Source of the DNA: a virus
DNA: 64,000 nucleotides
Direction: 5' to 3' (one strand)
IMG/VR virus record: IMGVR_UViG_3300043410_001471
Location: 1-64,000 of that record
In this document: positions 1,464 through 63,681 of the stretch, piece after piece
Layout of the letters: each line of letters starts with the position of its first letter
Position numbering within the stretch: position 1 is the stretch's first letter
Program-made: the position numbers and the translations under genes
Notes under the pieces: model-generated
Told to the model about the DNA's origin: nothing
The model's database searches: none
The model's input: the letters and a program-made list of their open reading frames with translations, nothing else

Positions 1464-1464
1464 A

Positions 1465-1677
1465 ATGGAAGATAAAAAAATAACAATTAAGGTATTCAAT
1501 TTCCCTTACATCCTATTTCAATTACCAACTGCAATGATTGGTTATACGATACATAAAAGTATTGGTTGGGCGATTATGGATTTCTTCTTTGCTCCACTTG
1601 CTTGGTGTAAGTGGTTGATTATGCAAGAAGTGAATATGAGTATTATCAAAGAAACATTTAATTTCTTTTTAAAATAG
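1465..1677 (+). CDS. small hydrophobic hypothetical protein
   Basis: 70-aa ORF tightly packed between neighbouring genes. Confidence 0.4.
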   Translation: MEDKKITIKVFNFPYILFQLPTAMIGYTIHKSIGWAIMDFFFAPLAWCKWLIMQEVNMSIIKETFNFFLK

Positions 1678-1682
1678 AATTT

Positions 1683-2096
1683 ATGAAAAATTTAATATTA
1701 TTAAGAGGATTGCCAGGTAGTGGTAAATCTACATTCGCTAAAACTATGTGGAGTGAATTGGTAGTTTGTGAAGCCGATGATTATTTCATAGATGAAGAAA
1801 CTGGCGAATATAAATTCAATGCAAGGGATTTACCTAAAGCACATAATTGGTGTAGATTTAGAGTAGAAACCTTTATGAAGGATAATCAGATGAATGACCA
1901 ATTCTATCCAAACATCGTAGTATCAAATACATTCACTCAATATTGGGAAATGGATGAATATTATGAATTGGCTAAAAAGTATGGTTATACAGTTTATTCT
2001 TTAATCGTAGAGAATAGACATGGTGGTGTTAATCAACATGGAGTTCCTGCTGATAAGTTAGAACAAATGAAAAATAGATTTGAAGTAAAGTTATGA
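1683..2096 (+). CDS. P-loop kinase, polynucleotide-kinase-like
   Basis: N-terminal Walker A LLRGLPGSGKST; its size and position beside an RNA ligase resemble the kinase module of Pnk-type healing enzymes. Confidence 0.55.
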   Translation: MKNLILLRGLPGSGKSTFAKTMWSELVVCEADDYFIDEETGEYKFNARDLPKAHNWCRFRVETFMKDNQMNDQFYPNIVVSNTFTQYWEMDEYYELAKKYGYTVYSLIVENRHGGVNQHGVPADKLEQMKNRFEVKL

Positions 2097-2386
2097 CACA
2101 ACAAGAATTTAATACAAAATACAAACAATACATACCAGAAGGTTGGGGTGGATTGGAATTCGATATACCAGAAGTTACTGATTACTTGGATAGTATTATG
2201 GATTATGGATTGGTTAATCTACCTGATTTCAAATTACATCAAATCAAATTAAAGTTTGGTATGAATCGATTCTATTTTGAAACATCAATGGAAAATAAAA
2301 AGCTAGAAGCAATTATTGAATTTGGAATAGAGCAACAAGTGAATAATATATTAATGAAAATATTAAAAGATGGAAAATTTAAATAG
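2093..2386 (+). CDS. hypothetical protein
   Basis: 97-aa ORF overlapping both neighbours by 4 and 17 nt. Confidence 0.5.
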   Translation: MTQQEFNTKYKQYIPEGWGGLEFDIPEVTDYLDSIMDYGLVNLPDFKLHQIKLKFGMNRFYFETSMENKKLEAIIEFGIEQQVNNILMKILKDGKFK

Positions 2387-3527
2387 CGTATGTTTCGTAG
2401 CAGAAGTTACGGAAATCAAAGAAATCGTAGGAGCTGATAACATTGAACAAGCCGTAGTAGGTGGTTGGAGTTGTATCGTAAAGAAAGGAGTTCATAAAGT
2501 TGGTGAAACAGTCGTATGTGCAACTACCGATGCAGTTATTCCATTTGAATTATCTGAAAAATTGGGAGTAACCAATTATTTGAGAAATGGTGGTAGAGTT
2601 AGGACTGTAAAGTTAAGAGGTGTATATTCAGAATGTTTGATTATCGATTTTGATAACTTACCTCAAATGAAAAAACAATTTACCAAAGGTATTGGGTATT
2701 ATTGGGAAAATGGTGAAGATGTAATGGAGTTATTGGGTATCTTCAAATATGAACCACCGGTTAAGCAAATTCAATTAGCAAGTGGTAGAAAGATTCGTTA
2801 TCAAGACAATCCTAATTTCCACGTTTACTATAAGTTCCCTAACTTAAAGAATGTGCCAGGATTGTTTACCGAAGAGGACACAGTTGAAATCACTCGTAAG
2901 ATTCACGGAACAAATGCCCGTTATGGTATTGTTAAGAAAAACAAATTATCATTGTGGGATAAGGTGAAGAAATTCTTACGATTGGCAGACAAGTGGGTTG
3001 AATATGAATTCGTAGTTGGTTCACATAATGTTGAAAAGGGTTCGGATTCACAAGGTTTTTATGATACGAATGTTTGGTATGAAATCGAAAAGAAATATGA
3101 CATCAAAAACAAATTATGGGATTATGTGAAAGATGAATTGTATGATGTTGAAATTGGTGATGGTATTACCTTATATGGTGAGATTTACGGAGCTGGAATT
3201 CAAAAGGGATATGATTATGGGTTGAAGGAGATTGAGTTCGTAGGATTCGATGCAAAAGAGAATGGTGAGTATTTGAGTACAATCAATTCAAAGTTGTTAT
3301 TCAGAGATATGTTAAAATTACCATATGTTGAGGAATTGTATTATGGTAATTGGTCACAATCAGTACAAGATAAATTTGTATTCAATAACTTCATTGAAGG
3401 AACTAAAGTACCACATGAAGGTATTGTAATCAAACATCAAACAGGCGAAAGACAAAAGATTGCTAAAGTAATCAACCCTGATTATTTAATCTATGGTGAG
3501 AAGCATGATATTGGAGATTCACATTAA
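2370..3527 (+). CDS. ATP-dependent RNA ligase (Rnl2-like nucleotidyltransferase)
   Basis: Motif I KIHGTNAR (lysine-adenylate site, very close to T4 Rnl2 KIHGTN), motif IV EIYGAGIQKGY, motif V EGIVIK. Confidence 0.75.
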   Translation: MENLNSVCFVAEVTEIKEIVGADNIEQAVVGGWSCIVKKGVHKVGETVVCATTDAVIPFELSEKLGVTNYLRNGGRVRTVKLRGVYSECLIIDFDNLPQMKKQFTKGIGYYWENGEDVMELLGIFKYEPPVKQIQLASGRKIRYQDNPNFHVYYKFPNLKNVPGLFTEEDTVEITRKIHGTNARYGIVKKNKLSLWDKVKKFLRLADKWVEYEFVVGSHNVEKGSDSQGFYDTNVWYEIEKKYDIKNKLWDYVKDELYDVEIGDGITLYGEIYGAGIQKGYDYGLKEIEFVGFDAKENGEYLSTINSKLLFRDMLKLPYVEELYYGNWSQSVQDKFVFNNFIEGTKVPHEGIVIKHQTGERQKIAKVINPDYLIYGEKHDIGDSH

Positions 3528-3537
3528 AAAATAAGTT

Positions 3538-3873
3538 ATGGAAAAAAAATTAGGAAAGATTCAATCAGTTAAATTCGGACATGGTGGGTATCAGGATGCC
3601 TGCATAGGTTTATCGGTTACATTGGGAAATACCGGATGGGGTGTTGGTGATTTCAAAGGTACATGGGACCCGGAAATGGTTAAACGAAGTGATTATACTA
3701 AATGGGAAGAAGAGGATAGAATCAAAGGTTTCGATGAAACAATGCGATTGGTATCAAAGTTGCTAAAAGAAGCAAAGGTAAATAGCGTTGATAAATTAAA
3801 AGATGTGCCAGTAGAAGTTACCTTTAATGGCAATATGCTAGAAGAATGGAGAATTTTAACTGAAGTATTATGA
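3538..3873 (+). CDS. hypothetical protein
   Basis: 111-aa ORF in the operon. Confidence 0.55.
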   Translation: MEKKLGKIQSVKFGHGGYQDACIGLSVTLGNTGWGVGDFKGTWDPEMVKRSDYTKWEEEDRIKGFDETMRLVSKLLKEAKVNSVDKLKDVPVEVTFNGNMLEEWRILTEVL

Positions 3874-4121
3874 TAAAGGAAATTTGGAAATATAGATTTA
3901 ACTATGCTATTGAGATGCCAAAGGAGGCAAAAGTTCTTGCAATTCAAAAGCAGGATGGCGAACCAACTATATGGGCATTAGTTAATCCTAATAATGAGTT
4001 GGAAATTAGAAATTTCAGAATCGTTGGCACTGGTAACCCATTCGATGATACCGATTATACTTACATTGGAACATTTCAGGATGGACCATTTGTTTGGCAT
4101 TTATTTGAAATTATAAAATAA
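3870..4121 (+). CDS. hypothetical protein
   Basis: 83-aa ORF with ATGA overlap. Confidence 0.5.
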   Translation: MIKEIWKYRFNYAIEMPKEAKVLAIQKQDGEPTIWALVNPNNELEIRNFRIVGTGNPFDDTDYTYIGTFQDGPFVWHLFEIIK

Positions 4122-4174
4122 ATTTGGAAAATTAAAAAATAAGTAGTATATTTGTATAAATAAAATTTAAAACG

Positions 4175-4603
4175 ATGAATGTTAAACAAGCACTAAAGCA
4201 AAAAAACAAATTGGTTACTGATTTAAAAGCTCAATATGAGATTTTGAAAAAGTATAATTCAATTGAGGAAGGTAATCCTCGTAGATATTCAATGAATGAT
4301 ACATTGGATAAAATTCAAACTTTATCTAATGAATTAGTAGAGTTGAAAGCAAAAATCCATAAAGCAAACCAACCGGTATATGCTCAAATCTTTCAATTGG
4401 CTGAATTAAAAGGTCAAATTAAGGAATTAAAGAAAGTTCCAACCGATGAAGGTAAGCAAACGGAAAGATATGGTAGTGTTGCTTCAGTAAAAGAAGTTGA
4501 ATTGACGGTTGTAAATATCAATTCAATCATTGAAAATCTGCAAGAAATTGTAGAAGAGTTACAAAATGAATTGGATATTCATAATTCGAATACCCAAATC
4601 TAA
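4175..4603 (+). CDS. hypothetical coiled-coil protein
   Basis: 142-aa ORF preceded by a TATATTTG -7 box at about 4150. Confidence 0.55.
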   Translation: MNVKQALKQKNKLVTDLKAQYEILKKYNSIEEGNPRRYSMNDTLDKIQTLSNELVELKAKIHKANQPVYAQIFQLAELKGQIKELKKVPTDEGKQTERYGSVASVKEVELTVVNINSIIENLQEIVEELQNELDIHNSNTQI

Positions 4604-4837
4604 AAATATTGAGTGAGTGGGGTTTGAAAACATTTAATTAGTTTATTCTTACAATTCTACTATGATACCAAATAGCGGATGAACGAATAAGATAATGAAT
4701 AATTAACAAACTTCAACAATATTAGGGTCACTTGTCGCGTAATTTCAAAACACTCAAACCTCTTTGAAACCGAATAACCTTTTTAATTGGATTCATTCCT
4801 CACAAACTCAAATTATTAAAAGAGTAAAATTTAAAAT

Positions 4838-5065
4838 ATGAACGCATTAATCGTTTATTACATTGTATGTATTATCTATTGTTTCTATCAGTTAAATAAA
4901 AAATATAAGAATAGAGGAGTAGATTATGGAACATCGCCAGAGTTAGATTCAATTATGGTATTGGTTATGGCATGGGTATTAGCACCTATTGATGTATCTA
5001 TTACTTGGATTAGAATGGTAAAGGAAGCTGAAGAAGCAAAAAGAAGAAATAGTAATATCTATTAA
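4838..5065 (+). CDS. small membrane protein
   Basis: 75-aa ORF with a hydrophobic N-terminus and a basic C-terminus. Confidence 0.4.
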   Translation: MNALIVYYIVCIIYCFYQLNKKYKNRGVDYGTSPELDSIMVLVMAWVLAPIDVSITWIRMVKEAEEAKRRNSNIY

Positions 5066-5071
5066 GATAAA

Positions 5072-5157
5072 GGAAGGGTGGCAGAGTTGGTCTATCGCGC
5101 TTGACTTGAAATCAAGTGACTGTAACAGGTCCGTGGGTTCGAATCCTACCCCTTCCG
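5072..5157 (+). tRNA. tRNA-Ser (anticodon TGA), type II
   Basis: Acceptor GGAAGGG/CCCTTCC, anticodon arm CTTGA-CTTGAAA-TCAAG, long variable arm, T arm GTGGG-TTCGAAT-CCTAC. Confidence 0.8.
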
Positions 5158-5162
5158 CAAAT

Positions 5163-5315
5163 TGTGGTGTGTTGAAATTGGCAGACAAGCCCTCCTGTCT
5201 CGGGGGTAGTGAGAACGAAATAGGTGAGTAATATGGGGTAGACCACCAGCCGGCCGGCGAAAGTGTTACTTACTGAATCGCACTATGGATGGTTCGAATC
5301 CTCCCACCACAGCCA
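5163..5315 (+). ncRNA. tRNA-like element with an ~80-nt insertion (tRNA-Asp GTC-like 5' half, encoded CCA)
   Basis: Perfect 7-bp acceptor TGTGGTG/CACCACA, then G-CCA. D arm and anticodon arm (CCCTC-CTGTCTC-GGGGG) fold. The T arm (GATGG-TTCGAAT-CCTCC) is imperfect and separated from the anticodon arm by an 81-nt insert containing the GCCGGCCGGC palindrome. Confidence 0.4.
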
Positions 5316-5328
5316 TTTTTATAAAGTT

Positions 5329-6006
5329 ATGAATAAAACAAAAGACAAAATTCTTTTTCAATTAGATGACTGGGTTTCCGATAAAGGAAATGGTGGCTAT
5401 GTACCAATTGATTTTAGCCCATATCCGGCAATTCATAATAACTTTTTAAATGAAGAAGTTGGTATTCAGCAAAATAGAGAGGAATTGGAAAAATTCATAG
5501 ATGTTCTATTACAATCCAATGGCGGAGTTTGTTTAGAAATTGGTTTAGGATTTTTTGGAAGTACTCATTTTCTTTGGAGGCAAATTTACAATAGAGTGAT
5601 TACAATCGAAAAGAACTTTGAAAGAATCAGAGAGTTTGGTCGTAATATGAAAAAATTCTATGGAGATTGGGTATTGGATGATGGTAAATCCCAATTTTTT
5701 ATTGGATATTCTAATAACGAAAAGGTAATAGCCGATGTCTACAAAAATATATCAGAAATTGATTTCTTATTTATAGATGGCAATCATTCATATGAATCGG
5801 TATTATGTGATTTCTTATTATACTACCCATTGGTGAAAAAGGGTGGAATTATTGGATTTCACGATACGGCATTATCGGAAGATAATATGGGAGTTCCACA
5901 ATTGATAGCTGAAATTAGAACTGGAAAATATACCAACGGACAACGAATCGATATCAAAGATATTGTTGAAAACAAATGGTCTGGTATTAGTTATTTTTAC
6001 AAATAA
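5329..6006 (+). CDS. class I SAM-dependent methyltransferase
   Basis: Motif I LEIGLGFFGS and LFIDGNHSYE...GGIIGFHD (CmcI/TylF-like). ORF 5263..6006 trimmed to the ATG at 5329 because its GTG-initiated N-terminus overlaps the tRNA-like element. Confidence 0.65.
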   Translation: MNKTKDKILFQLDDWVSDKGNGGYVPIDFSPYPAIHNNFLNEEVGIQQNREELEKFIDVLLQSNGGVCLEIGLGFFGSTHFLWRQIYNRVITIEKNFERIREFGRNMKKFYGDWVLDDGKSQFFIGYSNNEKVIADVYKNISEIDFLFIDGNHSYESVLCDFLLYYPLVKKGGIIGFHDTALSEDNMGVPQLIAEIRTGKYTNGQRIDIKDIVENKWSGISYFYK

Positions 6007-6058
6007 TTTGGAAATATGAAATATTTATAGTATCTTTATATTCATAAATAAAAATAAT

Positions 6059-6337
6059 ATGGCTGAATTTAGTAAACAATATTGTGAAATCTATGATTTT
6101 GATTTTCCTTGGGATTTTGATATCGAAGAAGAAGCAGCTAACATACCTAAAGGACACTATAAACCAATCATATGTGAAGGATTTGGTTTTAGCGGAATCG
6201 GTGTTAGAATGAGCGGTGAGATTGAATTATTGTTTAGAGATTATTTAGATGAAGATGATGCAGAAGTTGGTTCTTATAAACAGGTTGATTACAACAAATT
6301 TATTCAAAATCATCGATTAAAATCACAAGGAATCTAA
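6059..6337 (+). CDS. hypothetical acidic protein
   Basis: 92-aa ORF. Confidence 0.5.
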   Translation: MAEFSKQYCEIYDFDFPWDFDIEEEAANIPKGHYKPIICEGFGFSGIGVRMSGEIELLFRDYLDEDDAEVGSYKQVDYNKFIQNHRLKSQGI

Positions 6338-6338
6338 T

Positions 6339-6506
6339 ATGGGAAAATTCTATGAGGATTTAGATACTCTTAATGAGTTAGTAAAAAAATTAGATAAAAA
6401 GGATAAGTTAAGTGAATTCATTATCAGAGCAATCAGAAGAATGAAAGAAACTCCCGAAAAATCGGTATCAGATGTCATCAAAGAAACAAAAAAAGAATTT
6501 AATTAA
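6339..6506 (+). CDS. small hypothetical protein (55 aa)
   Basis: ATG ORF MGKFYEDLDTLNEL... filling the gap; below the 60-aa cutoff of the ORF track. Confidence 0.3.
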   Translation: MGKFYEDLDTLNELVKKLDKKDKLSEFIIRAIRRMKETPEKSVSDVIKETKKEFN

Positions 6507-6708
6507 TCCAGGTCATTATTTAGAATTGATGGATAGAATTCATGTACTATGTTGTACATTGGATGAACATATATTAAATCACCCATTGGCAGAAAACGAG
6601 CCAGATATTCAAAACAAATTGGATATGGCATTAGAATTATTATTAGAAGCTTACCAAATAGTAGGTGATAAAGAAATAGGTTATGAAGAAGAGAATAACT
6701 CACATTAG
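6472..6708 (+). CDS. hypothetical protein (start uncertain, possibly 6529)
   Basis: 78-aa ORF overlapping the preceding small ORF. Confidence 0.35.
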   Translation: MSSKKQKKNLINPGHYLELMDRIHVLCCTLDEHILNHPLAENEPDIQNKLDMALELLLEAYQIVGDKEIGYEEENNSH

Positions 6709-7468
6709 TGATACACATAATAAACACAATCAATTAAATGGCAAATTGCCAGGCGGTGATATCCTTATTCATAGTGGGGATATTTCTTCTATTGGTAGAG
6801 AATCCGAAGTTAAACGATTTGTAAAATGGTTTAATGAAATTGATAACTATACTCATAAGATATTCATAGCAGGTAATCACGACTTAACATTTGAATCTGA
6901 AATTCTATTCAGAACCAAATCCGAATATTTTGATAGAGTTCAGTATGAAGGATTGGCATCAATAGGTAAACCACAATGGTTGGAAGTTTTATTAACATCC
7001 GATTTAAATCCAAATGTATTCTATTTGGAAAATTCATTCGTAGAGATAGACCAAATCAAAATATGGGGTTCACCATATTCAGCAACCTTTGGATATGGAT
7101 GGGCATTCAATGTGGATAGAGGACACGATTCTGCACAAATGTGGAATACTATACCTGATGATACCGATATGGTAATTACTCACGGACCTATTTACGGATA
7201 TTGTGATAAGACTCAAAACAATTATCAAAATGTAGGATGTGAGGATTTGTATCATAGATTACAGGAAGTAAAACCACACTTACACTTTGCCGGTCACATT
7301 CACGAAGCATATGGTTATGGAACTATACCTTACAAAGATGCATGGGGTGATATATACACATTCAATGGATGTAGTTGTAATTTAAGATATGAGGTTTATA
7401 ACAAACCAATTACATTTGATTACGATTTTGTTAGTAGAGAATTAAATTTTGTAGATGATGAAGCATAA
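6683..7468 (+). CDS. calcineurin-like metallophosphoesterase
   Basis: Motifs ISDTHNKH, HSGDIS, GNHD, ITHGP, GHIHEAYG. Confidence 0.75.
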   Translation: MKKRITHISDTHNKHNQLNGKLPGGDILIHSGDISSIGRESEVKRFVKWFNEIDNYTHKIFIAGNHDLTFESEILFRTKSEYFDRVQYEGLASIGKPQWLEVLLTSDLNPNVFYLENSFVEIDQIKIWGSPYSATFGYGWAFNVDRGHDSAQMWNTIPDDTDMVITHGPIYGYCDKTQNNYQNVGCEDLYHRLQEVKPHLHFAGHIHEAYGYGTIPYKDAWGDIYTFNGCSCNLRYEVYNKPITFDYDFVSRELNFVDDEA

Positions 7469-7871
7469 AATATATTTAGATGATGTAAGAACTCCATTGG
7501 ATAATGGTTGGACAATCGTAAGAAATTATGATGAGTTCGTAAGTACCATTATGTACATCGGATTGGAAAATATTGGATTGATTTCATTAGACCACGATTT
7601 AGGTGATACAGCAATGAAAGAGTGGCATACTAATGTTGCCAAAAACTTCACATTGAATTATGATAACATTACCGAAAAGACTGGTATGGATTGTACAAAA
7701 TGGTTGGTGAATCAATGGATGGATGGTCAGCCGGTAGTTGATGTAGTAGTACATTCAGCAAACGCAATTGGTTCAGCAAATATGATGGGATATATAAACA
7801 ATTATAGACACATTAACCACTTACCACAAAATTGTGTAAGGGTTAGAATTGAACATACAATAAAACAATAA
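7455..7871 (+). CDS. conserved hypothetical protein (YLDDVRTP...SLDHDLG motifs)
   Basis: 138-aa ORF; 14-nt overlap with the phosphoesterase suggests translational coupling. Confidence 0.55.
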   Translation: MMKHKIYLDDVRTPLDNGWTIVRNYDEFVSTIMYIGLENIGLISLDHDLGDTAMKEWHTNVAKNFTLNYDNITEKTGMDCTKWLVNQWMDGQPVVDVVVHSANAIGSANMMGYINNYRHINHLPQNCVRVRIEHTIKQ

Positions 7872-45291: not shown

Positions 45292-45594
45292 ATGAACTCC
45301 AAAGCGTTATCAAAATTAGAAAAAAGTTACATCCAATTAGATTGGAAAGATTACATCAACAAAGTAGAATTAACTAAAGACCATATGGAAACCATCATCG
45401 ATATGATTGATGTGTTTAAGTTTAACAAATCAGCCAATGAATTGGTTGTATTTCGCTTTCATGGTATCCCTGCATATATAACAATTAAGAGGGAAGAATT
45501 TAAGGAACTATTAGATTGGATGTATCAGAGGATGTTACATAACGAATTCTTTGAGAATTGTAAGCGTATAAACGATTTAATGAAAACACTATGA
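45292..45594 (+). CDS. hypothetical protein
   Basis: 100-aa ORF preceded by a TATATTTG -7 box at about 45265. Confidence 0.5.
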   Translation: MNSKALSKLEKSYIQLDWKDYINKVELTKDHMETIIDMIDVFKFNKSANELVVFRFHGIPAYITIKREEFKELLDWMYQRMLHNEFFENCKRINDLMKTL

Positions 45595-45824
45595 ATAAAA
45601 TTACAGAGATATTCAGAAGTTGGGTAATAGCAGAGATGCCTTCCAAAGAACAGGCTGAATTGGCTCAACAAAGATTGGCTATATGTAAGACATGCGATTC
45701 TATGGTTGAATCCGTTGTATTCAAATTCAAATGTAAAGAATGTGGGTGTCCTATTGGTAAAAAAATATTTACTCCTATGATGGGTACTTGCGATTTACAT
45801 AAATGGGATAAAGTAGAAAAATAG
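45591..45824 (+). CDS. zinc-ribbon protein
   Basis: CKTCDS...CKECGC...CDLHKW. Confidence 0.45.
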   Translation: MNKITEIFRSWVIAEMPSKEQAELAQQRLAICKTCDSMVESVVFKFKCKECGCPIGKKIFTPMMGTCDLHKWDKVEK

Positions 45825-45858: not shown

Positions 45859-48123
45859 ATGAAAGGAACTTTTTTTTCAATGGACTTCATCGAAGATGTT
45901 GATGGTAATGTTCGTTTAATGGAAATTAATACGGATACCGCAATAGTTGAAGGTGGAATAACTAATTTAGATTTTACTGATTTTATAGATATGCTTGATG
46001 CAAATTCTATAACCGAAGTACATACAATTTCAAAAGCGTTTCAATCCGGTTTTGTAAATGCGTTATCACAAAGTTTAAGTGAGGATGCACCATTTATAAC
46101 TGTATTCGAAAATCATATGGAAGAAGATTCTACCATATACCCATCTTCAGTAGTCGATACTACCGATAGATTTATAATGAGATTGGCTTATGATGAGGCT
46201 GCTATATTCGATTCTGAATATGCTAAAAATAAATTGGCTCCATTAGATTTGTTCTATACAAATGATGATACTGGTTCTATTGTAGAGTATTATGTTTCAT
46301 CGTCTGCAAATGGTGTTACTGATATATTACCAATGGATTTCAATTCAGCGGAAATGCCGGATATCGCAGTTAAGAATTTGAATACAAATGTAAATAATTC
46401 TATTAAGTTTTTCAAAATAGGACACTCTTCATCTGAAACGGATGTTAGATATGATAAAGTAAAGGAAGCATTTTCTGAAAATAATCTTATTATTAAATTC
46501 TATGAAAATCCTTCAGATACTAAAGTTAAAAGTATTCGTTCAGTAAATGTAATCTACGGACCTAATTTGGATGTAATTACATTTGGTAGCTTCATAAGTG
46601 AGGCTTTATTTGAAAAACCTGTATCTTTAGAATTTGATGATGAAGTTATTATAACTAATTCAAATGTTAAACATTATTATGAATTAACTACAAACTATCC
46701 AAGATTTACAAATGTAAACAATTGGGGTGGAATCTTTGAAGAAGAAGAAGTAGTTAAAGCAGATGGTGGTAATATTTTAATAGGTAGTGCATCGGTTGGT
46801 ACTGAATTGAAATCATACTTTATCGAAGGTGCACCCAATACGGATGTTGTATCAGAATTCATGCAATGGTCTTCTCCAGGTTCTTCAATGCCATCGGGTT
46901 CATATGAAACTTCATCTGTTGTTGTTAATAATATTGAACAAGAGTTATCAAATAACACAATATTCCACTTAGTTATGGAAGATGGTTCTGATTTCAGAGC
47001 ATCGGGTGGAGCACACTTATTGGTATACGATAATGAAAAAGATGTATTGAGATATGAATCAGTTTCTAAAATAGATGAATCACTTCATAAGTTAGTTAAT
47101 TTGGATGGCGGTTTGGTTAATATATCTGCATCATATGGTGAGATATTAGATGGTGATTATAAAACTATCATTGTCGATATGGAAACTACCGATACATTCT
47201 TCTTATATAATGGTGGATTAAGTGTTAAAATTGTAACACATAACTGCTTCCCAGCTGGAACTAAAATTACTTTAGCAGATGGTTCTGAAAAGAACATCGA
47301 AGATTTAACAACCGATGATAAGTTATTAACTTACAATGAAAAAACGGGTATATTATCGGAAGGTACAATTGGTAACATTGTAAAGAAAAAAGAATTCTTA
47401 CTAATACAATTGGAATCAGAAGATGGTTCTATTGTTAAATCAACTGCTCTTCACAAATTCTATGTAAAAGGAAAAGGATGGGTAGCAGCGCAAGATATCG
47501 TAAAAGGTGATGTGTTAATTAAGAAAGATAAAAGTGAAACGATTGTAGTTGATAGAAACGATTTAAGTGGTGAGGTTGATGTATATCATATTATTGATGT
47601 TAAAGATAATCACACTTATTTTGCAGAAGGATTATTAGTACATAATTTCAAATATAGTGGTGGTTCTTGCTTTGTAGCAGGAACTAAAGTAACTATGGGA
47701 GATGGTTCTGAAAAGAATATTGAAGATGTAGTTGTTGGAGATGAAGTACTTTCTTTCAATGAATCTACTTTACAAAATGAAGTTAAGAAAGTAATTGGAT
47801 TAAAAACTCCAATTCACAATGATTTAGTTAAATACGAATTTGCAAATCAAACTTCAATAACTTCTACATTTGACCATCCATTCTATGTTGGTAATTTGGA
47901 ATTGGCATCATTTACTCCATTCTTAACTAATAAAAGATATGAATTGGATAGAGATGTTAGACAAATTAAAGTAGGTGATATGGTTTATTTATCTAATGGT
48001 GTTAGTAAAACAGCCATCAAAGATATCATTGAATTGGATGAGAAAGATACTCAAACATATATCATAACAGTGGAAGATAACCATAATTTTTACGCTAACG
48101 GAATTTTAGTACATAATAAATAA
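45859..48123 (+). CDS. large protein ending in two tandem Hint (intein-like/BIL) domains
   Basis: Hint 1 at 47245..47646 (CFPAGTKI...TALHKF...VHN) and Hint 2 at 47668..48117 (CFVAGTKV...TFDHPF...VHN-K-stop). The N-terminal residues DFIEDVDGNVRLMEINT resemble the C-terminal motif of ATP-grasp enzymes. Confidence 0.7.
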   Translation: MKGTFFSMDFIEDVDGNVRLMEINTDTAIVEGGITNLDFTDFIDMLDANSITEVHTISKAFQSGFVNALSQSLSEDAPFITVFENHMEEDSTIYPSSVVDTTDRFIMRLAYDEAAIFDSEYAKNKLAPLDLFYTNDDTGSIVEYYVSSSANGVTDILPMDFNSAEMPDIAVKNLNTNVNNSIKFFKIGHSSSETDVRYDKVKEAFSENNLIIKFYENPSDTKVKSIRSVNVIYGPNLDVITFGSFISEALFEKPVSLEFDDEVIITNSNVKHYYELTTNYPRFTNVNNWGGIFEEEEVVKADGGNILIGSASVGTELKSYFIEGAPNTDVVSEFMQWSSPGSSMPSGSYETSSVVVNNIEQELSNNTIFHLVMEDGSDFRASGGAHLLVYDNEKDVLRYESVSKIDESLHKLVNLDGGLVNISASYGEILDGDYKTIIVDMETTDTFFLYNGGLSVKIVTHNCFPAGTKITLADGSEKNIEDLTTDDKLLTYNEKTGILSEGTIGNIVKKKEFLLIQLESEDGSIVKSTALHKFYVKGKGWVAAQDIVKGDVLIKKDKSETIVVDRNDLSGEVDVYHIIDVKDNHTYFAEGLLVHNFKYSGGSCFVAGTKVTMGDGSEKNIEDVVVGDEVLSFNESTLQNEVKKVIGLKTPIHNDLVKYEFANQTSITSTFDHPFYVGNLELASFTPFLTNKRYELDRDVRQIKVGDMVYLSNGVSKTAIKDIIELDEKDTQTYIITVEDNHNFYANGILVHNK

Positions 48124-48284
48124 AATAATATGGCACAAGTATATAAAACATTTACAAAAGCTGATTTAACCAATAAGGGTGTAGCCCCTACTACTACTTT
48201 ACAAAAACAAAAAATAGCACAAATAATTACAAACTTTGTTGCATATTTTAAGTTAAAGCATATGTAATTTAAAACAAATAGGTT

Positions 48285-48788
48285 ATGGTTATATTCACTA
48301 AAGAAGAATGTGAGTATATTAAATCATTTTATTATACGGAAAAAGAATCATCTTCTAATGATGTACAACATTATGGAGATGTATCAATAAAATTTAGCAA
48401 TTCATCTGCTAAGTTTATATCTACTACTAATAAAGAACTCATAGAATTTTTATTAAATAAATTAAAACCATATGGTATCAAATCGATACCTATGGTTAAA
48501 TTTATGCGTTATCAAACTGGTGATAGTTTAGCAAGACATACTGATTTTGATAAGTATGGTGTTGATAAAATATATAAAACATTTTTAATTCAAATGTCAA
48601 ATTCGGAAGATTATGTTGGTGGCGATTTAATAGTTGGTAAAGATGTTCAATCAAGAGAGCAAGGGTGGTTATCTATTATAAACCCAACAACTCCACATGA
48701 AGTTACAAAAATGATTTCAGGTGAACGAATATCTTTAGTATTATTTTTAAGTGGAGAAAATTTGGATTTAAAAAAATCATTAATATAA
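48285..48788 (+). CDS. 2OG-Fe(II) oxygenase (prolyl-hydroxylase-like)
   Basis: HxD motif ARHTDFD, distal His PHEVTK, Arg/Ser ERISLVLF. Confidence 0.55.
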   Translation: MVIFTKEECEYIKSFYYTEKESSSNDVQHYGDVSIKFSNSSAKFISTTNKELIEFLLNKLKPYGIKSIPMVKFMRYQTGDSLARHTDFDKYGVDKIYKTFLIQMSNSEDYVGGDLIVGKDVQSREQGWLSIINPTTPHEVTKMISGERISLVLFLSGENLDLKKSLI

Positions 48789-49174
48789 TGTATTCTTTAT
48801 ATAAATTTCAAACAAGAGGAATTGGTGTAATATCTGATATGGATATTATTAAAGATACTTTTATTGGAAATTATTTTTCTAAAAATGAACAATTGACGCC
48901 TAATAGTAGATTGATATATAATGGTTGGGTTGAAACGAATCCATTGGGTAGATACTTGAATCACAATATTAATTCGAATTTATATTTGATTAAAAAGGAT
49001 AATGTAATTGAATTATATACAAATGAAAATATATTTGCGCATACTGAATTAACTATAAATTATATGGATATAATAGAATTAATAGATTTACCAGAACACT
49101 TAATTTTAGAGTATGGTATATCCGATTTTAATTATATTGAAGAAACGATAAATTTAAATAAAAATATAATATAA
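48788..49174 (+). CDS. SET-domain protein (divergent paralog)
   Basis: GIGVISDMDIIKDTFIG, RYLNHNINSNL (compare NHSCNPN), ELTINY (compare ELTFDY). Confidence 0.5.
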   Translation: MYSLYKFQTRGIGVISDMDIIKDTFIGNYFSKNEQLTPNSRLIYNGWVETNPLGRYLNHNINSNLYLIKKDNVIELYTNENIFAHTELTINYMDIIELIDLPEHLILEYGISDFNYIEETINLNKNII

Positions 49175-49584
49175 TGGTTACATTGATATCTCCAACTAAA
49201 GTAGAAGTAAGAACATCTCCTATACATGGGTATGGAGTATTTGCTACTGATAAAATAAATAAAGGTGAAGTAATAGAAGAATGTCATCTTTTAACAATAC
49301 CATTCAAATTAGGAACATTCGATTCCTTTTTAGTTAATCATAAGTTTAATTTCCCATCAATAGGTAAAGTTGAAGAATATGTAATACCATTAGGTTATGG
49401 AGCTATATATAACCATTCGGATAATAATAACGCATTCTGGCGTACAAATATAGAACATAAAACATTTGAATTTGTAGCAGTTAGAGATATAGAAATTGGA
49501 GAAGAAGTGTGTACTTATTATGGTGATAGTACTTATTGGGAGACTGTTAATAAATTTACAAACGAAAAAGTTAAAGTAATATAA
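49174..49584 (+). CDS. minimal SET-domain lysine methyltransferase, chlorovirus vSET-like
   Basis: HGYGVFATDKINKGEVIEEC, LGYGAIYNHSDNNNA, IEIGEEVCTYYGDSTYW; close alignment with the recalled PBCV-1 vSET sequence. Confidence 0.7.
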   Translation: MVTLISPTKVEVRTSPIHGYGVFATDKINKGEVIEECHLLTIPFKLGTFDSFLVNHKFNFPSIGKVEEYVIPLGYGAIYNHSDNNNAFWRTNIEHKTFEFVAVRDIEIGEEVCTYYGDSTYWETVNKFTNEKVKVI

Positions 49585-50315
49585 TGAAATTAGTTTATAG
49601 TTTTACTACAAAAATGGGTAACTATACCGATAATGATTGGGTAGTAATTTACTATAAAGCAGCTATGCTTAGAGCTAGAGAATTGGGGTATAAAATAAAA
49701 TTGTATGGTTGTAATTTTATGTATGAATCTCTTATAGATTATATAGATGAATTCGTTAGTATAGAAGATGAGGAATTTATATTGACAGATGATTTAAAAA
49801 TGTTTATACATTCTAAAGAAGGGTTGGATTGTATAACAATTGATGGTGATATAATATTAGAATCAAAATTAATATTACCGGATGATTGTGATGTTTTATT
49901 TGAAACAAAGTTATTGAATACTAAAAATCAAAAGTTTATAAAATATTTGGATATCTTTAAAAAATATAAAACAATCGAATTTATAAACGGATTTGATTAT
50001 GATGGATTAAGTGCATGTAATGTTGGTATTTTAAAATTTAATAACATACATACTAAGAATTTATTATTGAATAGATACTATCAGTTTAGAAAGTGGTATT
50101 TAGAAGTAATAGAACCAACTGAAAATTTAACTCAATGGGATGACCCTGCTATTATAATGTGTGAATATTATTTTGCAAGAATTATGGATAAAAACAATAT
50201 ATCTTATAAATTTTGTAAAGATTTCAATGATTATACACATTATGCTTCTGAATTAAAATTTCAACAAAAATTCTTTAATCACATAAATGCTATTTTTAAT
50301 AAACGAATTTTATAA
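49584..50315 (+). CDS. hypothetical protein, tandem paralog A (possible GT-A glycosyltransferase, DGD motif)
   Basis: CITIDGDIILES and GILKFNN shared with the downstream paralog. Confidence 0.4.
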   Translation: MKLVYSFTTKMGNYTDNDWVVIYYKAAMLRARELGYKIKLYGCNFMYESLIDYIDEFVSIEDEEFILTDDLKMFIHSKEGLDCITIDGDIILESKLILPDDCDVLFETKLLNTKNQKFIKYLDIFKKYKTIEFINGFDYDGLSACNVGILKFNNIHTKNLLLNRYYQFRKWYLEVIEPTENLTQWDDPAIIMCEYYFARIMDKNNISYKFCKDFNDYTHYASELKFQQKFFNHINAIFNKRIL

Positions 50316-51019
50316 TGAATCTTATTTATACTTTCGATAAAAATGTTTATAAAAACGATTCTCATAAATTTGATATTATTAAATCTTATTATATCAATAG
50401 TATCAATTCTGCTAAACGATTGGGATACAAAACTGAAATTTATACCAATTCGGATATATTCAATAATCACATTGATATTACTAATACCACTTCAAATGAA
50501 TTTACATTTTGGGATGGATTTAAAACATTACCATTATTAGATGATACAAATGGTTTATTAGTAGATGGTGATATAATATTTGATTCTAAAATGCCTGAAT
50601 TTACAAATGATATTGATTTGTATTTCGATGGGTGGGAGAGTTGGTTGGATTTATATTCAGAATGTGTAAATGAATTAACATTATTAGGAATAAATGAAAT
50701 CATACCCGAATGGGAATCAGTTCCTCAAAGAGTCATCAACATAGGAATTCTTAAAATAAATAATGTCCAATTAAAAGAATTGTATTTAGATAGGTGGTAT
50801 AAGATGTATAATTTTTGTAATATGAACAAACATAATATGAAATATTTTTATATGTGTTGTACAATTACATCTCAATATTTATTAACAATATTATCTAAGA
50901 ATTATAGAATACAAAACTTGTCAAATAGATTAGGTAAACCTAATGGATATTATACACATTTCGTAGGTCAGCAAAAATACAAATCAAATCCACTATCAAT
51001 CGAAAAATCTATTATATGA
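50315..51019 (+). CDS. hypothetical protein, tandem paralog B
   Basis: LLVDGDIIFDS and GILKINN; ATGA overlaps on both sides. Confidence 0.4.
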   Translation: MNLIYTFDKNVYKNDSHKFDIIKSYYINSINSAKRLGYKTEIYTNSDIFNNHIDITNTTSNEFTFWDGFKTLPLLDDTNGLLVDGDIIFDSKMPEFTNDIDLYFDGWESWLDLYSECVNELTLLGINEIIPEWESVPQRVINIGILKINNVQLKELYLDRWYKMYNFCNMNKHNMKYFYMCCTITSQYLLTILSKNYRIQNLSNRLGKPNGYYTHFVGQQKYKSNPLSIEKSII

Positions 51020-52254
51020 AAATATATGTACATCACTGGTTTACCGATGAATTATTTATTAAATTAGCACATAATACTACTAATAGAGTTTATGAATTAT
51101 CCGATTTTAATTTTCAAAAAATAGGTAAAGTTAGTTGTGAATATAATGATTTAAAAATAGAATTTATTTTTAATCCGGAATTGAATGATAATACCGATGG
51201 GTATCATTTAATAGATTTTTTTACATCATTAAGGAAAAGGCATTTCTACGATTATTATAACGATATAGATGTTAGTGATGGTGTAGAAGATACTCCATTT
51301 ATAAAAAGATTTGCCGAATTATTGAAGGATAAGAATGGTTGGATTATAATGTTATTACGAACAGAGAAGATAATAGATTCCTTAGATACCAATGATTATT
51401 ATATTGTTAAATTGGAGGAAGAACTTCTAAAATTAAATCAGCATATAATTGTTACTGATAATTTTTTTGTAAATGATAAAATACGAAATACATATCCAAA
51501 CATATATTTTGCATTAACAAATACGATATGGCAATGGAACGAATTAATTAATATAAGATATTGGTATGAATTTTCCAACATATTTTCAAAATTAAACTTT
51601 GATTATAAATTAATGTATTCTATAAGAAGGCATAAAAAATATAGAATAGAAATACTTAAAAATTTAGCAAAGTTAAATAACAAAGATATCCTATTACAAC
51701 GGGCCGATTTTTTTAAAAATGATTCATATCATTTATACGATTCTGAATTAGTTGAATTAAAAAATGTGAATTTAAATTCCTTAGAAGGATTGAGTGATTT
51801 TCAAAATCTTAAATTATTAGATTATCAAATGGGTGTTGAATATGAAGTATTTTTTAGATTTTTAAATCTATCAAAAATGCAAATATTGGATGAGAGTTGG
51901 TCTTGGTATAAGGGAGATTTCACATCACAATATCTTTCTGAAAAATCATATGGATTACTATTAGCTAAGATACCATTTATATCAACTCACTCATATCCAT
52001 TAGATGTTATTCAATCTATGTTGAATATAAGACCACATCCATTTTATAAAGAATCAAAAGAATGTAAAGGTGACCCTATAAAATTTACCGAATATGTAGA
52101 TAACTTTTTAATTAATTTTGATTATAATTATCAATTGTGTAAAGAATGGACAGATGAGTGCCATAATTTACTTATAGAAAAATTAGAAAACGAAAACTCA
52201 TTTTTAGAATTATTAAGCAACGGATTTAAAAAATCGATTAAATTACTTTTATAA
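51016..52254 (+). CDS. putative glycosyltransferase, paralog 3 of the 29955/31024 family
   Basis: YSIRRHKKYRIEIL and LSEKSYGLLLAKIPFIS match the paralog motifs. Confidence 0.35.
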   Translation: MKIYVHHWFTDELFIKLAHNTTNRVYELSDFNFQKIGKVSCEYNDLKIEFIFNPELNDNTDGYHLIDFFTSLRKRHFYDYYNDIDVSDGVEDTPFIKRFAELLKDKNGWIIMLLRTEKIIDSLDTNDYYIVKLEEELLKLNQHIIVTDNFFVNDKIRNTYPNIYFALTNTIWQWNELINIRYWYEFSNIFSKLNFDYKLMYSIRRHKKYRIEILKNLAKLNNKDILLQRADFFKNDSYHLYDSELVELKNVNLNSLEGLSDFQNLKLLDYQMGVEYEVFFRFLNLSKMQILDESWSWYKGDFTSQYLSEKSYGLLLAKIPFISTHSYPLDVIQSMLNIRPHPFYKESKECKGDPIKFTEYVDNFLINFDYNYQLCKEWTDECHNLLIEKLENENSFLELLSNGFKKSIKLLL

Positions 52255-60617: not shown

Positions 60618-61840
60618 TGGAGGCATTTTTAGCAGCTGTTACTAAAGTATATTTAAAATCCGATAAACCATTGGATAAAAAAAAGGATTATATAAGAAAA
60701 TATAATCAAAATGATTCATTCGATGATAATGATATCCGATTTTTGGGTGCTATTGAATTCGCAAGAGAATCATCTATTGCCTTAGAAGCATATGCATTTC
60801 CATTTGATAAGAATAATATGACTTATCCAATTGTGGGTGAGACTGTGATGGTTATAGTTATTGGTAATGATTATTTTTGGCTACCTTATTCAAATAATCA
60901 CTATCCAAATTATAGAGAAGATTATAAAACTTCCGAAATAAATAAAGAAAAGCCAATTGAAGAAGCAACATCTTCAAATAAGAGTAAGAATTATAATGAA
61001 GCTAAACAAACAGGAATACCAAATCAAAAACCAGTACAAAAGAAATCGGATGAAAAGAAGTATGATATCAAAGAAAAAATAAAATTCTTAAAGCCAAATG
61101 AAGGTGATACGATTTTGAGTGGTAGAGTTGGAAACACAATTCGTTTTAGTGAATTTCATTTAACGGAAGATAGTAAAACATCATCGCCTTCTATATTCAT
61201 TAGAAACAAACAAAATCCCGAATTGGATGATAAAAAAATTGGGGAATTAATAGATGAAGATATCAACAAAGATGGTACATCGATTTATATTACATCAAAT
61301 AAGGTAAAAGTACCATTTAAAGAAACTATTAAAAAACAAAAAGTAGGATTTAAAGAATATCCAGCATCCGATAAACTAAAAGGTGACCAATTATTTGTAA
61401 ATTCTGATAGAATATTATTATCTGCAAAGGCAAGTGAATTTATAATTTTTGGTAAAGGAAATACTGGCATTATAACAGATGGAACATTTTCGGTAGATTC
61501 TGCTAAAGATATTTACTTACATACTGATAAAAATATAACTTTACATAGTAAAGGAAGTAATAAAATATTCTTTAATTCGGAAAATGGTAAAATATTTTTA
61601 GGAAAAGATAAAGGTGTAGGTGGTGCCGGTGCAGATGTTCAAAAAATGGTATTAGGTGGCGAATTAGTTAAATTGATGGGAGATTTGATAGATGCGATTG
61701 GTAATACATTTTACTTATCTCCATCGGGTCCAACAAACGCATCAGTTCCAAATGGACCATTGAATATGGCTGAATTTAAGGCTATAAAATCTCAATTAAA
61801 TACTTTATTATCCGCAAACAATTATTTAAGTAAAACATAA
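60617..61840 (+). CDS. putative baseplate hub/spike-like protein
   Basis: Lies upstream of the gp25 and J genes; C-terminal VLGGELVKLMGDLIDAIGNTFYLSPSGP resembles gp5/gpV-type spike tails. Confidence 0.3.
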   Translation: MEAFLAAVTKVYLKSDKPLDKKKDYIRKYNQNDSFDDNDIRFLGAIEFARESSIALEAYAFPFDKNNMTYPIVGETVMVIVIGNDYFWLPYSNNHYPNYREDYKTSEINKEKPIEEATSSNKSKNYNEAKQTGIPNQKPVQKKSDEKKYDIKEKIKFLKPNEGDTILSGRVGNTIRFSEFHLTEDSKTSSPSIFIRNKQNPELDDKKIGELIDEDINKDGTSIYITSNKVKVPFKETIKKQKVGFKEYPASDKLKGDQLFVNSDRILLSAKASEFIIFGKGNTGIITDGTFSVDSAKDIYLHTDKNITLHSKGSNKIFFNSENGKIFLGKDKGVGGAGADVQKMVLGGELVKLMGDLIDAIGNTFYLSPSGPTNASVPNGPLNMAEFKAIKSQLNTLLSANNYLSKT

Positions 61841-62700
61841 TGGCGTTTGATTTAAATAAATTAATAAAACCATCTTCAAGTAGTTGGACTGATTTTTATT
61901 ACAATATGACAGCTGGTAGTTTAATACCAACTATGAGTAATGTAAAGCAATCTGTATTACAAGATGAGATGGAGAAATCATTTGAAGCCGCTGGTGTTTC
62001 GGGTGATATTGCTAAATTTGGATTTTCTCAAATTAGCAATTTTCAATATGCGGATAGAATTACAACGGAATACGATAAAGCAATACAAGGTGGTAAAACT
62101 ATATTAGGTGGTGTACCCATTAAGATAGGAAATACTGCGGCGATGAGAGCTGTTTTATTTACCATAATGTTAAAAACATCTCAAGACCCAAAAGGCGATT
62201 TATTGAGAGATATTGGACCAGCTATACAAGCGTATTGGGTTGGCGCCCAAACCGATAAAATGGCTGTTCCAAATATTCCATGCGTTGGTGCATTGAAAAA
62301 CATAAATACAATATTTGGCGTAAACTTATCACCTGGTGTATGGACTCCATTGCCAGTACCCGCAGTTGGTAGTGTTGACCCATTTTTGTTAAGTTTTATA
62401 GCTTCAGCATCATTACACTTACTAACAGTTGGTGGAATCATAACATGCAACTGTCAATACCCACCACCAGCACCACCTGCTCCAGGAATATTACCATGGG
62501 GTGGTTATTTTGTTAAACCATTCACAGGTACACAAAATTCTATGAAACCGGCATTAAATGATTTAAAAACATTGGGTAAAGCAGCTGCATTGAATATTGG
62601 TAAACCATTATTGGGAGATGCATTAACTGCCATATTTAATGAAGATAGCAATGCATTGGAAAATATAACAAAAGAATTAAAAAACAACAATAAAGGATAA
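61840..62700 (+). CDS. putative baseplate or virion protein (Pro-rich PPPAPPAPG segment)
   Basis: 286-aa ORF in the baseplate block. Confidence 0.4.
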   Translation: MAFDLNKLIKPSSSSWTDFYYNMTAGSLIPTMSNVKQSVLQDEMEKSFEAAGVSGDIAKFGFSQISNFQYADRITTEYDKAIQGGKTILGGVPIKIGNTAAMRAVLFTIMLKTSQDPKGDLLRDIGPAIQAYWVGAQTDKMAVPNIPCVGALKNINTIFGVNLSPGVWTPLPVPAVGSVDPFLLSFIASASLHLLTVGGIITCNCQYPPPAPPAPGILPWGGYFVKPFTGTQNSMKPALNDLKTLGKAAALNIGKPLLGDALTAIFNEDSNALENITKELKNNNKG

Positions 62701-62743: not shown

Positions 62744-63244
62744 ATGGATTCAAAATTATTAGTCGGATTAATTAAGGAAGTTGTTAAAAATGAAGTTAAA
62801 CAACAAGTTAAAGAAGAATTAGCAAAGCTAATCAAATCCGGTGCGGTTACATTAAACTCACAAAGAAAACCATCTACTCCATCATTGAGAGAGATGACAG
62901 AAGTTGCTCCTACGCCTGTTAGAAAGCAACAACCGGTTCAACAACAAAGACCTCAAATTCAAAAGGAATTTTCAAAAGACCCTATGATTAATGAGATTCT
63001 TAATATGACTCAACCATTCACAGCAGAACAAAGAAAAGAAGGTGCAAGTGCGGTTAGTAGTGTATTAGATATGATTAAGCCTGAATTAAGAGTTGATGAA
63101 AGTGAATGGGAAACTATGGATTTTAGAGATGTAAATGTACCTGCTGGAACACCTCAATTCGAATCAACAGGTGATGGATTACAAGATGCTACTATAAAAG
63201 CATTGACAAGAGATTATTCAGAATTAGTAAAGAGATTTAAATAA
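62744..63244 (+). CDS. hypothetical virion-module protein
   Basis: 166-aa ORF. Confidence 0.45.
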   Translation: MDSKLLVGLIKEVVKNEVKQQVKEELAKLIKSGAVTLNSQRKPSTPSLREMTEVAPTPVRKQQPVQQQRPQIQKEFSKDPMINEILNMTQPFTAEQRKEGASAVSSVLDMIKPELRVDESEWETMDFRDVNVPAGTPQFESTGDGLQDATIKALTRDYSELVKRFK

Positions 63245-63681
63245 TGGCAATAGAGCTTGGTAAAGTTAATGTAACTGATTTAGCTGCAAATGATTATAAA
63301 GTATTGGGAATTGGTGTTAATACTACATCCGATTCTAATGGTGTATTTGCTGTAAATTTCACTACAATTTCTCAAGCTAAAAGTAATTTAAAAAATTTAA
63401 TATTAACTCATAAGGGAGAACGAGTAATGCAGCCTGATTTTGGTTGTGATATTTGGTTGATTTTATTTGAACCAATTATTGAGGGAACAATTGAAACGAA
63501 TATAGAAAGAACTATTTTGGAAGCAGTTGATAGATGGTTGCCATATTTGAATATAGATGAAATAATATTTGATTATGATGATAATGATATTGATACTAAT
63601 AAAATTATGTTAGATATAAAGTTCTCATTAAAATCAAATAAAAATATAAGAGATTCAGTACAAATAAATGTAAATAATTAA
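63244..63681 (+). CDS. baseplate wedge protein (T4 gp25 / P2 gpW family)
   Basis: HKGERVMQPDFGCDIWLILFEPI...ILEAVDRWLPYL matches the GPW/gp25 signature (GER..P.FG..l..llFe). Confidence 0.6.
   Translation: MAIELGKVNVTDLAANDYKVLGIGVNTTSDSNGVFAVNFTTISQAKSNLKNLILTHKGERVMQPDFGCDIWLILFEPIIEGTIETNIERTILEAVDRWLPYLNIDEIIFDYDDNDIDTNKIMLDIKFSLKSNKNIRDSVQINVNN

Follow-up and report, generated by a model that had tools for sequence, protein, structure and literature searches.

A phage gene cassette linking SET-domain, 2-oxoglutarate oxygenase and GT8-like genes, with a possible role in protein modification

Lysine methylation by SET-domain enzymes is a hallmark of eukaryotic chromatin biology, and its role in bacteria is poorly understood. 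The subject here is a group of phage genes that includes two of the SET type. They lie in a 64,000-nucleotide stretch of viral DNA (positions 1 to 64,000 of IMG/VR record IMGVR_UViG_3300043410_001471), referred to throughout as the window. The source of the window is a 245,436-bp Joint Genome Institute (JGI) metagenome contig, whose proteins P0075 and P0144 are 100% identical to window proteins. An initial annotation, made from the sequence without database searches, described three open reading frames (ORFs): a 2-oxoglutarate (2OG)-Fe(II) oxygenase of the prolyl-hydroxylase type, followed by two SET-domain proteins, joined by ATGA or TAATG overlaps. All three ORFs were recovered at the positions given, on the plus strand, and both junctions are of the TAATG type. 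The proposed three-gene module proved too small. The unit comprises at least eight genes, among them two for predicted GT8-like glycosyltransferases, in a translationally coupled cassette (table 1).

Layout, composition and selection

Table 1. Genes of the cassette, with window coordinates and the basis of each assignment.
Gene or product	Length (aa)	Coordinates	Strand	Basis or remark
Hint-domain protein	754	45859..48123	+	Conserved anchor of island
p45	45	48130..48267	+	Conserved small ORF
Predicted Fe(II)/2OG dioxygenase, prolyl-4-hydroxylase type	167	48285..48788	+	Pfam, PHROG
SET-128, divergent minimal SET-domain protein, predicted lysine methyltransferase	128	48788..49174	+	PF00856
SET-136, vSET-like minimal SET-domain protein, predicted lysine methyltransferase	136	49174..49584	+	PF00856, 1n3j
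X, predicted GT-A-fold GT8-like glycosyltransferase, DUF6734-related family	243	49584..50315	+	AlphaFold2 model, family motifs
X', paralog of X, predicted GT8-like	234	50315..51019	+	BLASTP, common motifs
Y, conserved orphan, last gene of overlapping run	412	51016..52254	+	Orthologs in relatives

The genes are tightly packed. The p45 gene begins 6 nt after the Hint gene, and 1-nt TAATG overlaps occur at four consecutive junctions (2OG/SET-128, SET-128/SET-136, SET-136/X and X/X'). The X'/Y junction is an ATGA overlap. No terminator-like hairpin lies between 46.6 kb and 53,375; downstream of the cassette there are two strong ones, at 53,375 and 53,850. The four stop/start junctions are built from the heptamer TATAATG (48781–48790, 49167–49176, 49577–49586 and 50308–50317). 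This coupling sequence is conserved and bears a resemblance to a -10 box; TATAAT is found again at the end of gene Y (52247–52254). Just upstream of the Hint gene lies a 77-aa ORF (45591–45824) whose CxxC...CxxC spacing suggests a zinc ribbon.

The window reaches its highest AT content in the cassette (GC 0.243, versus 0.314 overall), and the four lowest in GC among its 73 ORFs are SET-128, X, Y and X'. This composition had been noted in the initial annotation and taken to suggest horizontal acquisition. The compositional difference is real. Recent transfer finds no support, because low GC is common to five diverged relatives, with cassette proteins ~50–60% identical, in which the cassette has a GC of 0.243–0.255 against 0.294–0.323 in the flanks. 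The low GC is therefore an old trait.

The ratio of nonsynonymous to synonymous substitution rates (dN/dS) is ~0.04–0.25 across all cassette genes, p45 included. The three ORFs first reported are real genes under purifying selection; that they are pseudogenes or chance ORFs is rejected, since catalytic residues are invariant and dN/dS is 0.04–0.24. One gene stands out in its degree of conservation. X is 83.5% identical to its ortholog on a 198-kb contig (L013:4417–5148), compared with 52–60% for the neighbouring cassette genes. This jump in sequence identity points to recombination or mosaicism within the cassette.

Predicted enzymes, the Hint protein and p45

SET-136 matches the Pfam SET profile (PF00856) over its full length with 48.1 bits (cutoff 22.4), as a single domain at residues 19–117. 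Its best match among PDB sequences is vSET of chlorovirus PBCV-1 (1n3j; E 2.8e-14, residues 9–126 against 5–114, 32% identity), followed by Schizosaccharomyces pombe Set7 and a Plasmodium SET protein. The initial comparison with vSET is thus borne out, and the motifs on which it drew (GYGVFA, GAIYNHS and IEIGEEVCTYYG) are all present. In an alignment of 24 homologs with vSET, the residues G19, G21, V22, F23, A24, N80, H81, E110, E111 and Y116 are invariant. The catalytic tyrosine of vSET, Tyr105, aligns with Y116. SET-136 consists of a stand-alone core lacking pre-SET and post-SET modules, and vSET is its closest PDB homolog, so that it can be classed as a vSET-like minimal protein. Homology to 1n3j suggests that it adopts the SET fold. 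Its dN/dS against the closest relatives is 0.04–0.10.

SET-128 is more divergent. The Pfam SET profile gives 32.1 bits against the same cutoff and covers only residues 48–92. The family comprises 69 homolog clusters, nearly all of exactly 128 aa, in which R10, G11, G13, G54, R55, Y56, N58, H59, E87, T89, Y92 and Y116 are invariant and the motifs RGxG, GRYxNH and ELTxxY are kept; dN/dS is 0.20–0.22 against the closest relatives. Both SET families retain the GxG and NH motifs for binding S-adenosylmethionine (SAM) as well as the catalytic Tyr of the E-L/E-x-x-x-Y motif. Both proteins are predicted to be catalytically competent lysine methyltransferases. SET-128 had been described as a divergent paralog of SET-136. 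The SET domain with intact motifs was correctly recognized, and the term paralog was not apt: BLASTP between the two proteins gives E 0.8, which also rejects a recent duplication, and alignment of the two families by hhalign gives a probability of 87% (E 3.9e-6) across three motifs. Relatives hold SET-136 alone, SET-128 alone, or both. The two are distinct families, only distantly related.

The 167-aa protein lies at the Pfam cutoff for 2OG-FeII_Oxy_3 (27.2 versus 27) and matches phrog_61 ('2OG-Fe(II) oxygenase') at 1e-12. Residues H85-x-D87...H138...R148 are invariant in 46 homologs. The features that characterize the prolyl 4-hydroxylase (P4H) type (PF13640) are all present: the HxD...H facial triad, the basic residue for the 2OG C5 carboxylate and, in the predicted structure, a double-stranded beta-helix fold. 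The nearest structural neighbours are protein hydroxylases; among the structural matches no TET/JBP-type neighbour was found, and AlkB-type matches rank lower. The protein is a dioxygenase of the prolyl-hydroxylase type, for which peptidyl-proline is a predicted substrate; dN/dS is 0.15–0.24 against the closest relatives. Profile searches thus recover both families named in the initial annotation, and the catalytic Tyr and His residues, whose loss would have spoken against it, are invariant in both SET families and in the oxygenase family. Close relatives carry extra oxygenases that have no counterpart in the window (L001:4174–4674; L002:7128–7715; L025:6393–6974), namely a Pox_C4_C10/2OG-FeII_Oxy_3 type between the P4H and SET-128 genes and a 2OG-FeII_Oxy_5 gene after the SET and X genes.

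X and X' have no match in Pfam, NCBIfam or PDB sequences. An exhaustive profile search among 1.84 billion proteins found 156 cluster representatives of the X family, mostly of ~230–260 aa, and Pfam DUF6734 matches 27 of 124 family representatives. An AlphaFold2 model of X built with the family alignment has a predicted local distance difference test score (pLDDT) of 96.3. Invariance in the family is limited to D87, D89 and H219, which we take to be the DxD...H metal site of GT8 enzymes. The model has a GT-A Rossmann-like fold with the DxD and distal His placed as a metal site. Its structural neighbours include the protein-modifying glycosyltransferases (GTs) glycogenin, Skp1 alpha-GalT, GlyE, TcdA and Legionella Lgt1/SetA. 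X and X' are related (BLASTP E 3e-12, 24% identity), both hold DGD, G.LK.NN and Y.H motifs, and X' is conserved adjoining X in relatives. On the strength of the model both are probably GT8-like glycosyltransferases, and the DUF6734-related family thereby gains a predicted fold and a likely activity. Orthologs of Y are 49–53% identical in three relatives (L010, L013 and L015), with many invariant residues; Y has no match in Pfam, PHROG, NCBIfam or PDB. A motif resemblance of Y to GT10-like fucosyltransferases was considered and found no support in PDB profile and segment searches, Pfam, NCBIfam or PHROG.

The 754-aa protein at the head of the cassette combines an orphan N-terminal domain of ~460 aa (Hint-N) with two clear tandem Hint/bacterial intein-like (BIL) domains. 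Pfam matches to PT-HINT (67.6 bits), Intein_splicing (62.3 bits), Hint and AXH fall within residues 473–753. In addition to these profile matches, the domains show the N-terminal Cys and C-terminal HN motifs of the Hint/BIL class (CFPAGT...LLVHN and CFVAGT...ILVHN-K-stop). Canonical intein splicing is unlikely, because the residue after HN is F or K and not C, S or T. The sequence KIVTHN, followed by C, just before the first Hint domain looks like the end of a third, degenerate one. Relatives have one to three Hint copies and fall into length classes of ~620, 750 and 900 aa. The dN/dS of the Hint protein is 0.15–0.25. Its N-domain has no match in Pfam, NCBIfam or PDB. The N-terminus was also considered as an ATP-grasp fragment on account of an 'EINT' motif, and this was rejected: no ATP-grasp ORF lies upstream, and neither PDB nor Pfam lends support.

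The small protein p45 has no family match in Pfam, PHROG or NCBIfam. Among 50 distinct sequences it shows a near-invariant Tyr5-Lys6 and a C-terminal NF..Y.K.KH motif, with YK and F at least 90% conserved. Its dN/dS is 0.13–0.18 against close relatives.

Distribution of the island and its source genome

The same eight genes recur in 140–262 kb contigs from other samples, in one direction, with overlapping boundaries and 50–60% protein identity. The order in these relatives is Hint protein (735–755 aa), p45, oxygenase, SET-128, X, X' (~233 aa), a 138-aa SET protein and Y (~415 aa). The 138-aa protein between X' and Y is the ortholog of SET-136 (57–59% identity), which suggests that SET-136 was relocated in the window lineage and now directly follows SET-128.

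Relatives of Hint-N occur on 84 IMG/VR contigs, with identity down to ~33%. Gene content was counted in 56 distinct Hint-N loci with at least 4.2 kb of downstream sequence. The p45 gene lies immediately downstream of Hint-N in 45 of the 56. An oxygenase of this family, in one to five copies, is likewise present in 45 (80%), one or two SET genes in 24 (43%) and X-type glycosyltransferases in 12 (21%). The genes occur in many different orders and copy numbers. The cassette is one version of a variable island that is anchored by the Hint-N/p45 pair.

SET genes are rare in deposited phages, as the initial annotation had stated: a tblastn search with SET-136 matched two of 50,697 records, both of them one 735-kb uncultured phage sequence deposited twice. 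Yet vSET-like genes are present on 331 of ~2.9 million IMG/VR contigs. Hint-N, SET-128, X and Y gave no tblastn match in the 50,697 deposited phage genomes, cyanophages included. SET-128 family members are found on only five IMG/VR contigs, all of them island contigs. Among the best 80 of the 331 vSET-like contigs, only 7 are island contigs. In cellular organisms, SET-136 relatives are encoded by 336 of 185,579 species genomes. The best homolog, at 56%, is on a contig of 16.7 kb that was binned to Winogradskyella. No other exceeds 43% identity, and most come from Coxiellaceae/Legionellales, Saprospiraceae, Patescibacteria and Planctomycetes. Within 4 kb of the best 80 cellular SET loci there is no 2OG, X, Y, Hint-N or p45 gene. 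The Winogradskyella contig (L097, NZ_JABDKL010000023.1) has 33% GC, and the genes next to its SET homolog lack Pfam matches. Possibly it is a phage fragment binned in error, which would hint at a Flavobacteriaceae host.

The source contig encodes a gp25 baseplate wedge protein, RNA ligase, UvdE, Hsp20, a Nol-type carbamoyltransferase and two tRNAs. From gp25 and the remaining gene content it follows that the source is a T4-like jumbo myovirus; the lineage is one of uncultured T4-like marine and freshwater jumbo myophages. The gp25 baseplate gene, the bacterial-type tRNAs and the phage gene content also indicate a bacterial host. Weak patches of nucleotide similarity (68–71%) to Flavobacterium phage immuto and to cyanophages lie outside the cassette, and a search for nucleotide similarity of the cassette to known phages found none. 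The tRNA-Gln and tRNA-Ser genes are at 55–126 and 5072–5158. Within the window, only the region around them (809–7865) shows appreciable nucleotide similarity to a cultured phage, Flavobacterium phage vB_FspM_immuto, at 70.8% over 14% of the first 8 kb. Despite the AT-rich, T4-like character of the genome, the whole window is depleted in the T4 late-promoter consensus TATAAATA, with 9 sites where shuffled sequences predict 22.5. Because of this depletion the motif is uninformative as a clue to the timing of expression. A sigma-70 promoter scan of the window was at chance level (76 versus 74.7).

Candidate functions and comparison with known systems

The favoured explanation, given a probability of roughly 0.55, is that the cassette carries out post-translational modification of one or more proteins during infection by hydroxylation, methylation and glycosylation. 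The proposed activities are as follows. (i) The oxygenase would hydroxylate the side chain of Pro (or Lys). (ii) The GT8-like enzymes would perform O-glycosylation, perhaps at the residue already hydroxylated, in the manner of the Skp1 or collagen pathways. (iii) The two SET enzymes would methylate the epsilon-amino group of lysines with SAM. That the enzymes act on protein, and that they share a target, we infer. Protein is the suggested substrate because the SET enzymes, the neighbours of the oxygenase and many structural neighbours of X act on proteins; to our knowledge, all characterized SET enzymes are protein lysine methyltransferases. A hydroxylate-then-glycosylate order is plausible by analogy, at the level of 'works like'. 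As a best guess, the targets are p45 with its near-invariant Tyr-Lys, the Hint-protein N-domain, or both. The main alternative is that host proteins are modified. A protein-modifying role, as first proposed, is a sensible reading, and the linkage to the Hint protein and p45 adds phage-encoded candidates to the HU, ribosomal and virion proteins originally named.

Several observations weigh against protein modification by the cassette. LgtC and WbbM are among the top structural matches of X, and GT8-like enzymes also build lipopolysaccharide and other glycans. The single semi-conserved Pro of p45 varies in the broad alignment. Downstream of Hint-N, 215 of 337 ORFs (64%) fall outside the four families, so the island is also a general hotspot for accessory genes. 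Among the best 80 viral contigs, vSET-like genes adjoin a SNF2-family helicase (13 loci), a sulfotransferase/APS-kinase set (8) and SmpB (3), at loci that include L023, L047, L026 and L006–L009. As most other viral contigs have SET in such unrelated contexts, SET does not need the cassette partners. The sulfotransferase, APS kinase and CTP-transferase set is flanked by SprB-repeat giant proteins. Finally, DNA repair or 2OG balance, and not action on proteins, is the role proposed for the multi-copy 2OG oxygenases that are common in T4-like cyanophages (PMC3037559, PMC9602691).

An elaboration of the protein-modification reading holds that Hint-N and p45 are the substrate and scaffold of a diversifying protein-marking system, with the enzymes as 'writers' whose combinations differ among phages. 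In this scheme p45 and/or the N-domain released by the Hint domains would be methylated by the SETs, hydroxylated by P4H-type oxygenases and glycosylated by GT8-like enzymes. It is a long shot. If true, it would give bacterial viruses their own counterpart of histone-tail or Skp1-type modification, with uses in host takeover, counter-defence or virion function.

Much of the same evidence suits the possibility that the genes are unlinked accessory genes (morons), gathered in a hyperplastic region downstream of a conserved gene, and that the enzymes act independently: the oxygenase in DNA/RNA repair or 2OG balance, the GTs on host envelope glycans and the SETs on host protein. Island order and copy number are highly variable, most downstream ORFs belong to unrelated families, vSET-like genes occur in at least three other viral contexts, multi-copy 2OG oxygenases are generic in T4-like marine phages, and the conservation of X relative to its neighbours would suggest that genes are exchanged individually. 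Tight packing and overlaps of genes are common in phage genomes generally. This account is the main rival, credible but less likely than the favoured reading. Against it, the same four enzyme families recur beside Hint-N/p45 in relatives down to ~33% Hint-N identity; SET genes occur in 43% of islands, whereas their share of all viral contigs is ~0.01%; members of the SET-128 family are confined to the island; and all eight genes are kept together in several relatives of 140–262 kb despite internal rearrangement.

It is somewhat less probable that the cassette is a host-takeover module, whose enzymes would methylate and hydroxylate host proteins, such as nucleoid-associated proteins, EF-Tu or ribosomal proteins, and so reprogramme the cell. 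The toxin-type GTs among the structural neighbours of X (TcdA, Lgt1 and SetA) modify host proteins, and the SNF2-family helicase adjoins a vSET-like gene in 13 other viral loci. Archaeal and bacterial SETs have been reported to methylate chromatin or chromatin-like proteins (review PMC10117894). The constant linkage, however, is to phage-encoded Hint-N and p45, with no recognizable takeover gene, and among bacterial and archaeal SET loci the best 80 have no partner genes nearby.

A pathway resembling those for ribosomally synthesized and post-translationally modified peptides (RiPPs) is improbable. Here p45 would be the precursor tailored by the downstream enzymes, and the Hint domains would serve autoprocessing or ligation. 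A small, conserved and selected p45 with a near-invariant Tyr-Lys, immediately upstream of tailoring-type enzymes in 45 of 56 islands, would suit such a scheme, and the variable enzyme complement may be likened to natural-product clusters. No leader/core organization, recognition element, protease or exporter was found, p45 is conserved at both termini like a small folded protein and has no hypervariable core, and we know of no SET enzyme that tailors RiPPs. Very unlikely is DNA hypermodification, in which the oxygenase would oxidize a base and the GTs glycosylate it, as with phage TET/JBP-plus-GT systems or T4 hydroxymethylcytosine glucosylation, with the SETs as bystanders: oxygenase-plus-glycosyltransferase pairs are known in phage DNA modification, but Pfam assigns 2OG-FeII_Oxy_3 and not TET_JBP, the lack of a TET/JBP-type structural neighbour and the lower rank of AlkB-type matches argue against it, and it leaves no role for the two SETs, said to be the most constrained genes.

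Protein modification by the cassette, the favoured reading, can be compared with several known systems. The vSET protein of PBCV-1 (A612L; 1n3j, 2g46, 3kma) is a minimal viral H3K27 methyltransferase. SET-136 is likewise virus-encoded and SET-only, of ~120–136 aa, with GxGVFA, NH and E-E...Y motifs. It differs in lying in a cassette with P4H and glycosyltransferase genes, whereas vSET is a stand-alone gene. Bacteria have no histone H3, and with a bacterial host an H3K27 substrate and the host-chromatin repression exerted by vSET are therefore very unlikely here. The phage SETs share their domain with bacterial and archaeal SETs such as Methanosarcina Go1-SET and those of Chlamydia, Legionella and Bacillus anthracis. 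Many characterized bacterial SETs are secreted effectors aimed at eukaryotic histones, a role not applicable to a phage.

The phage oxygenase is shorter (167 aa versus 181–234 aa) than vCPH, the bacterial and algal P4Hs (5c5t, 4iw3, 2jij) and the PKHD-type PiuC/YbiX, and only 14–21% identical to them. Pro-rich repeat substrates of the vCPH kind are absent from the window except for one short stretch. A search of the coding strand for collagen-like or Pro-rich repeats found only YPPPAPPAPG, in a 286-aa orphan protein (61840–62700) beside the gp25 baseplate gene (63244–63681); this protein is a weak candidate substrate for the P4H-type oxygenase. With the Skp1 pathway (PhyA P4H with Gnt1, PgtA and AgtA/Gat1), the collagen pathway and the hydroxylysine glycosylation of mimivirus L230, the cassette has a likeness at the level of fold only. 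The cassette has P4H-type and GT8-like components. A search of the window found neither Skp1 nor a collagen-like (G-X-Y) protein nor any other known substrate. Within the cassette, where Y is an orphan, a priming GT of the Gnt1 type was not recognized, and the Skp1 and collagen pathways themselves have no SET methyltransferases.

T4-like marine cyanomyoviruses carry 1–24 copies of pfam13640/13759 oxygenases, whose function has not been investigated (PMC3037559, PMC9602691). The island relatives resemble them in carrying one to five 2OG oxygenase copies; no link to SET, GT8-like, Hint-N or p45 genes is mentioned in the cyanomyovirus reports. For one cultured phage a 'SET domain protein' ORF is named, without study (PMC9025141). 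A literature search found no study of SET lysine methylation in bacteriophages, and nothing on a SET cassette in phages or on an association of one with P4H-type oxygenases and GT8-like transferases. The individual kinds of enzyme are already known. What is new is that SET genes are embedded in a conserved and selected P4H/GT8-like cassette, and that vSET-like genes, catalytically intact as judged by sequence, recur in uncultured phages. The eight genes are small and all expressible in Escherichia coli, and they offer an entry both to the targets of phage SET enzymes and to the role of the multi-copy 2OG oxygenases of marine phages.

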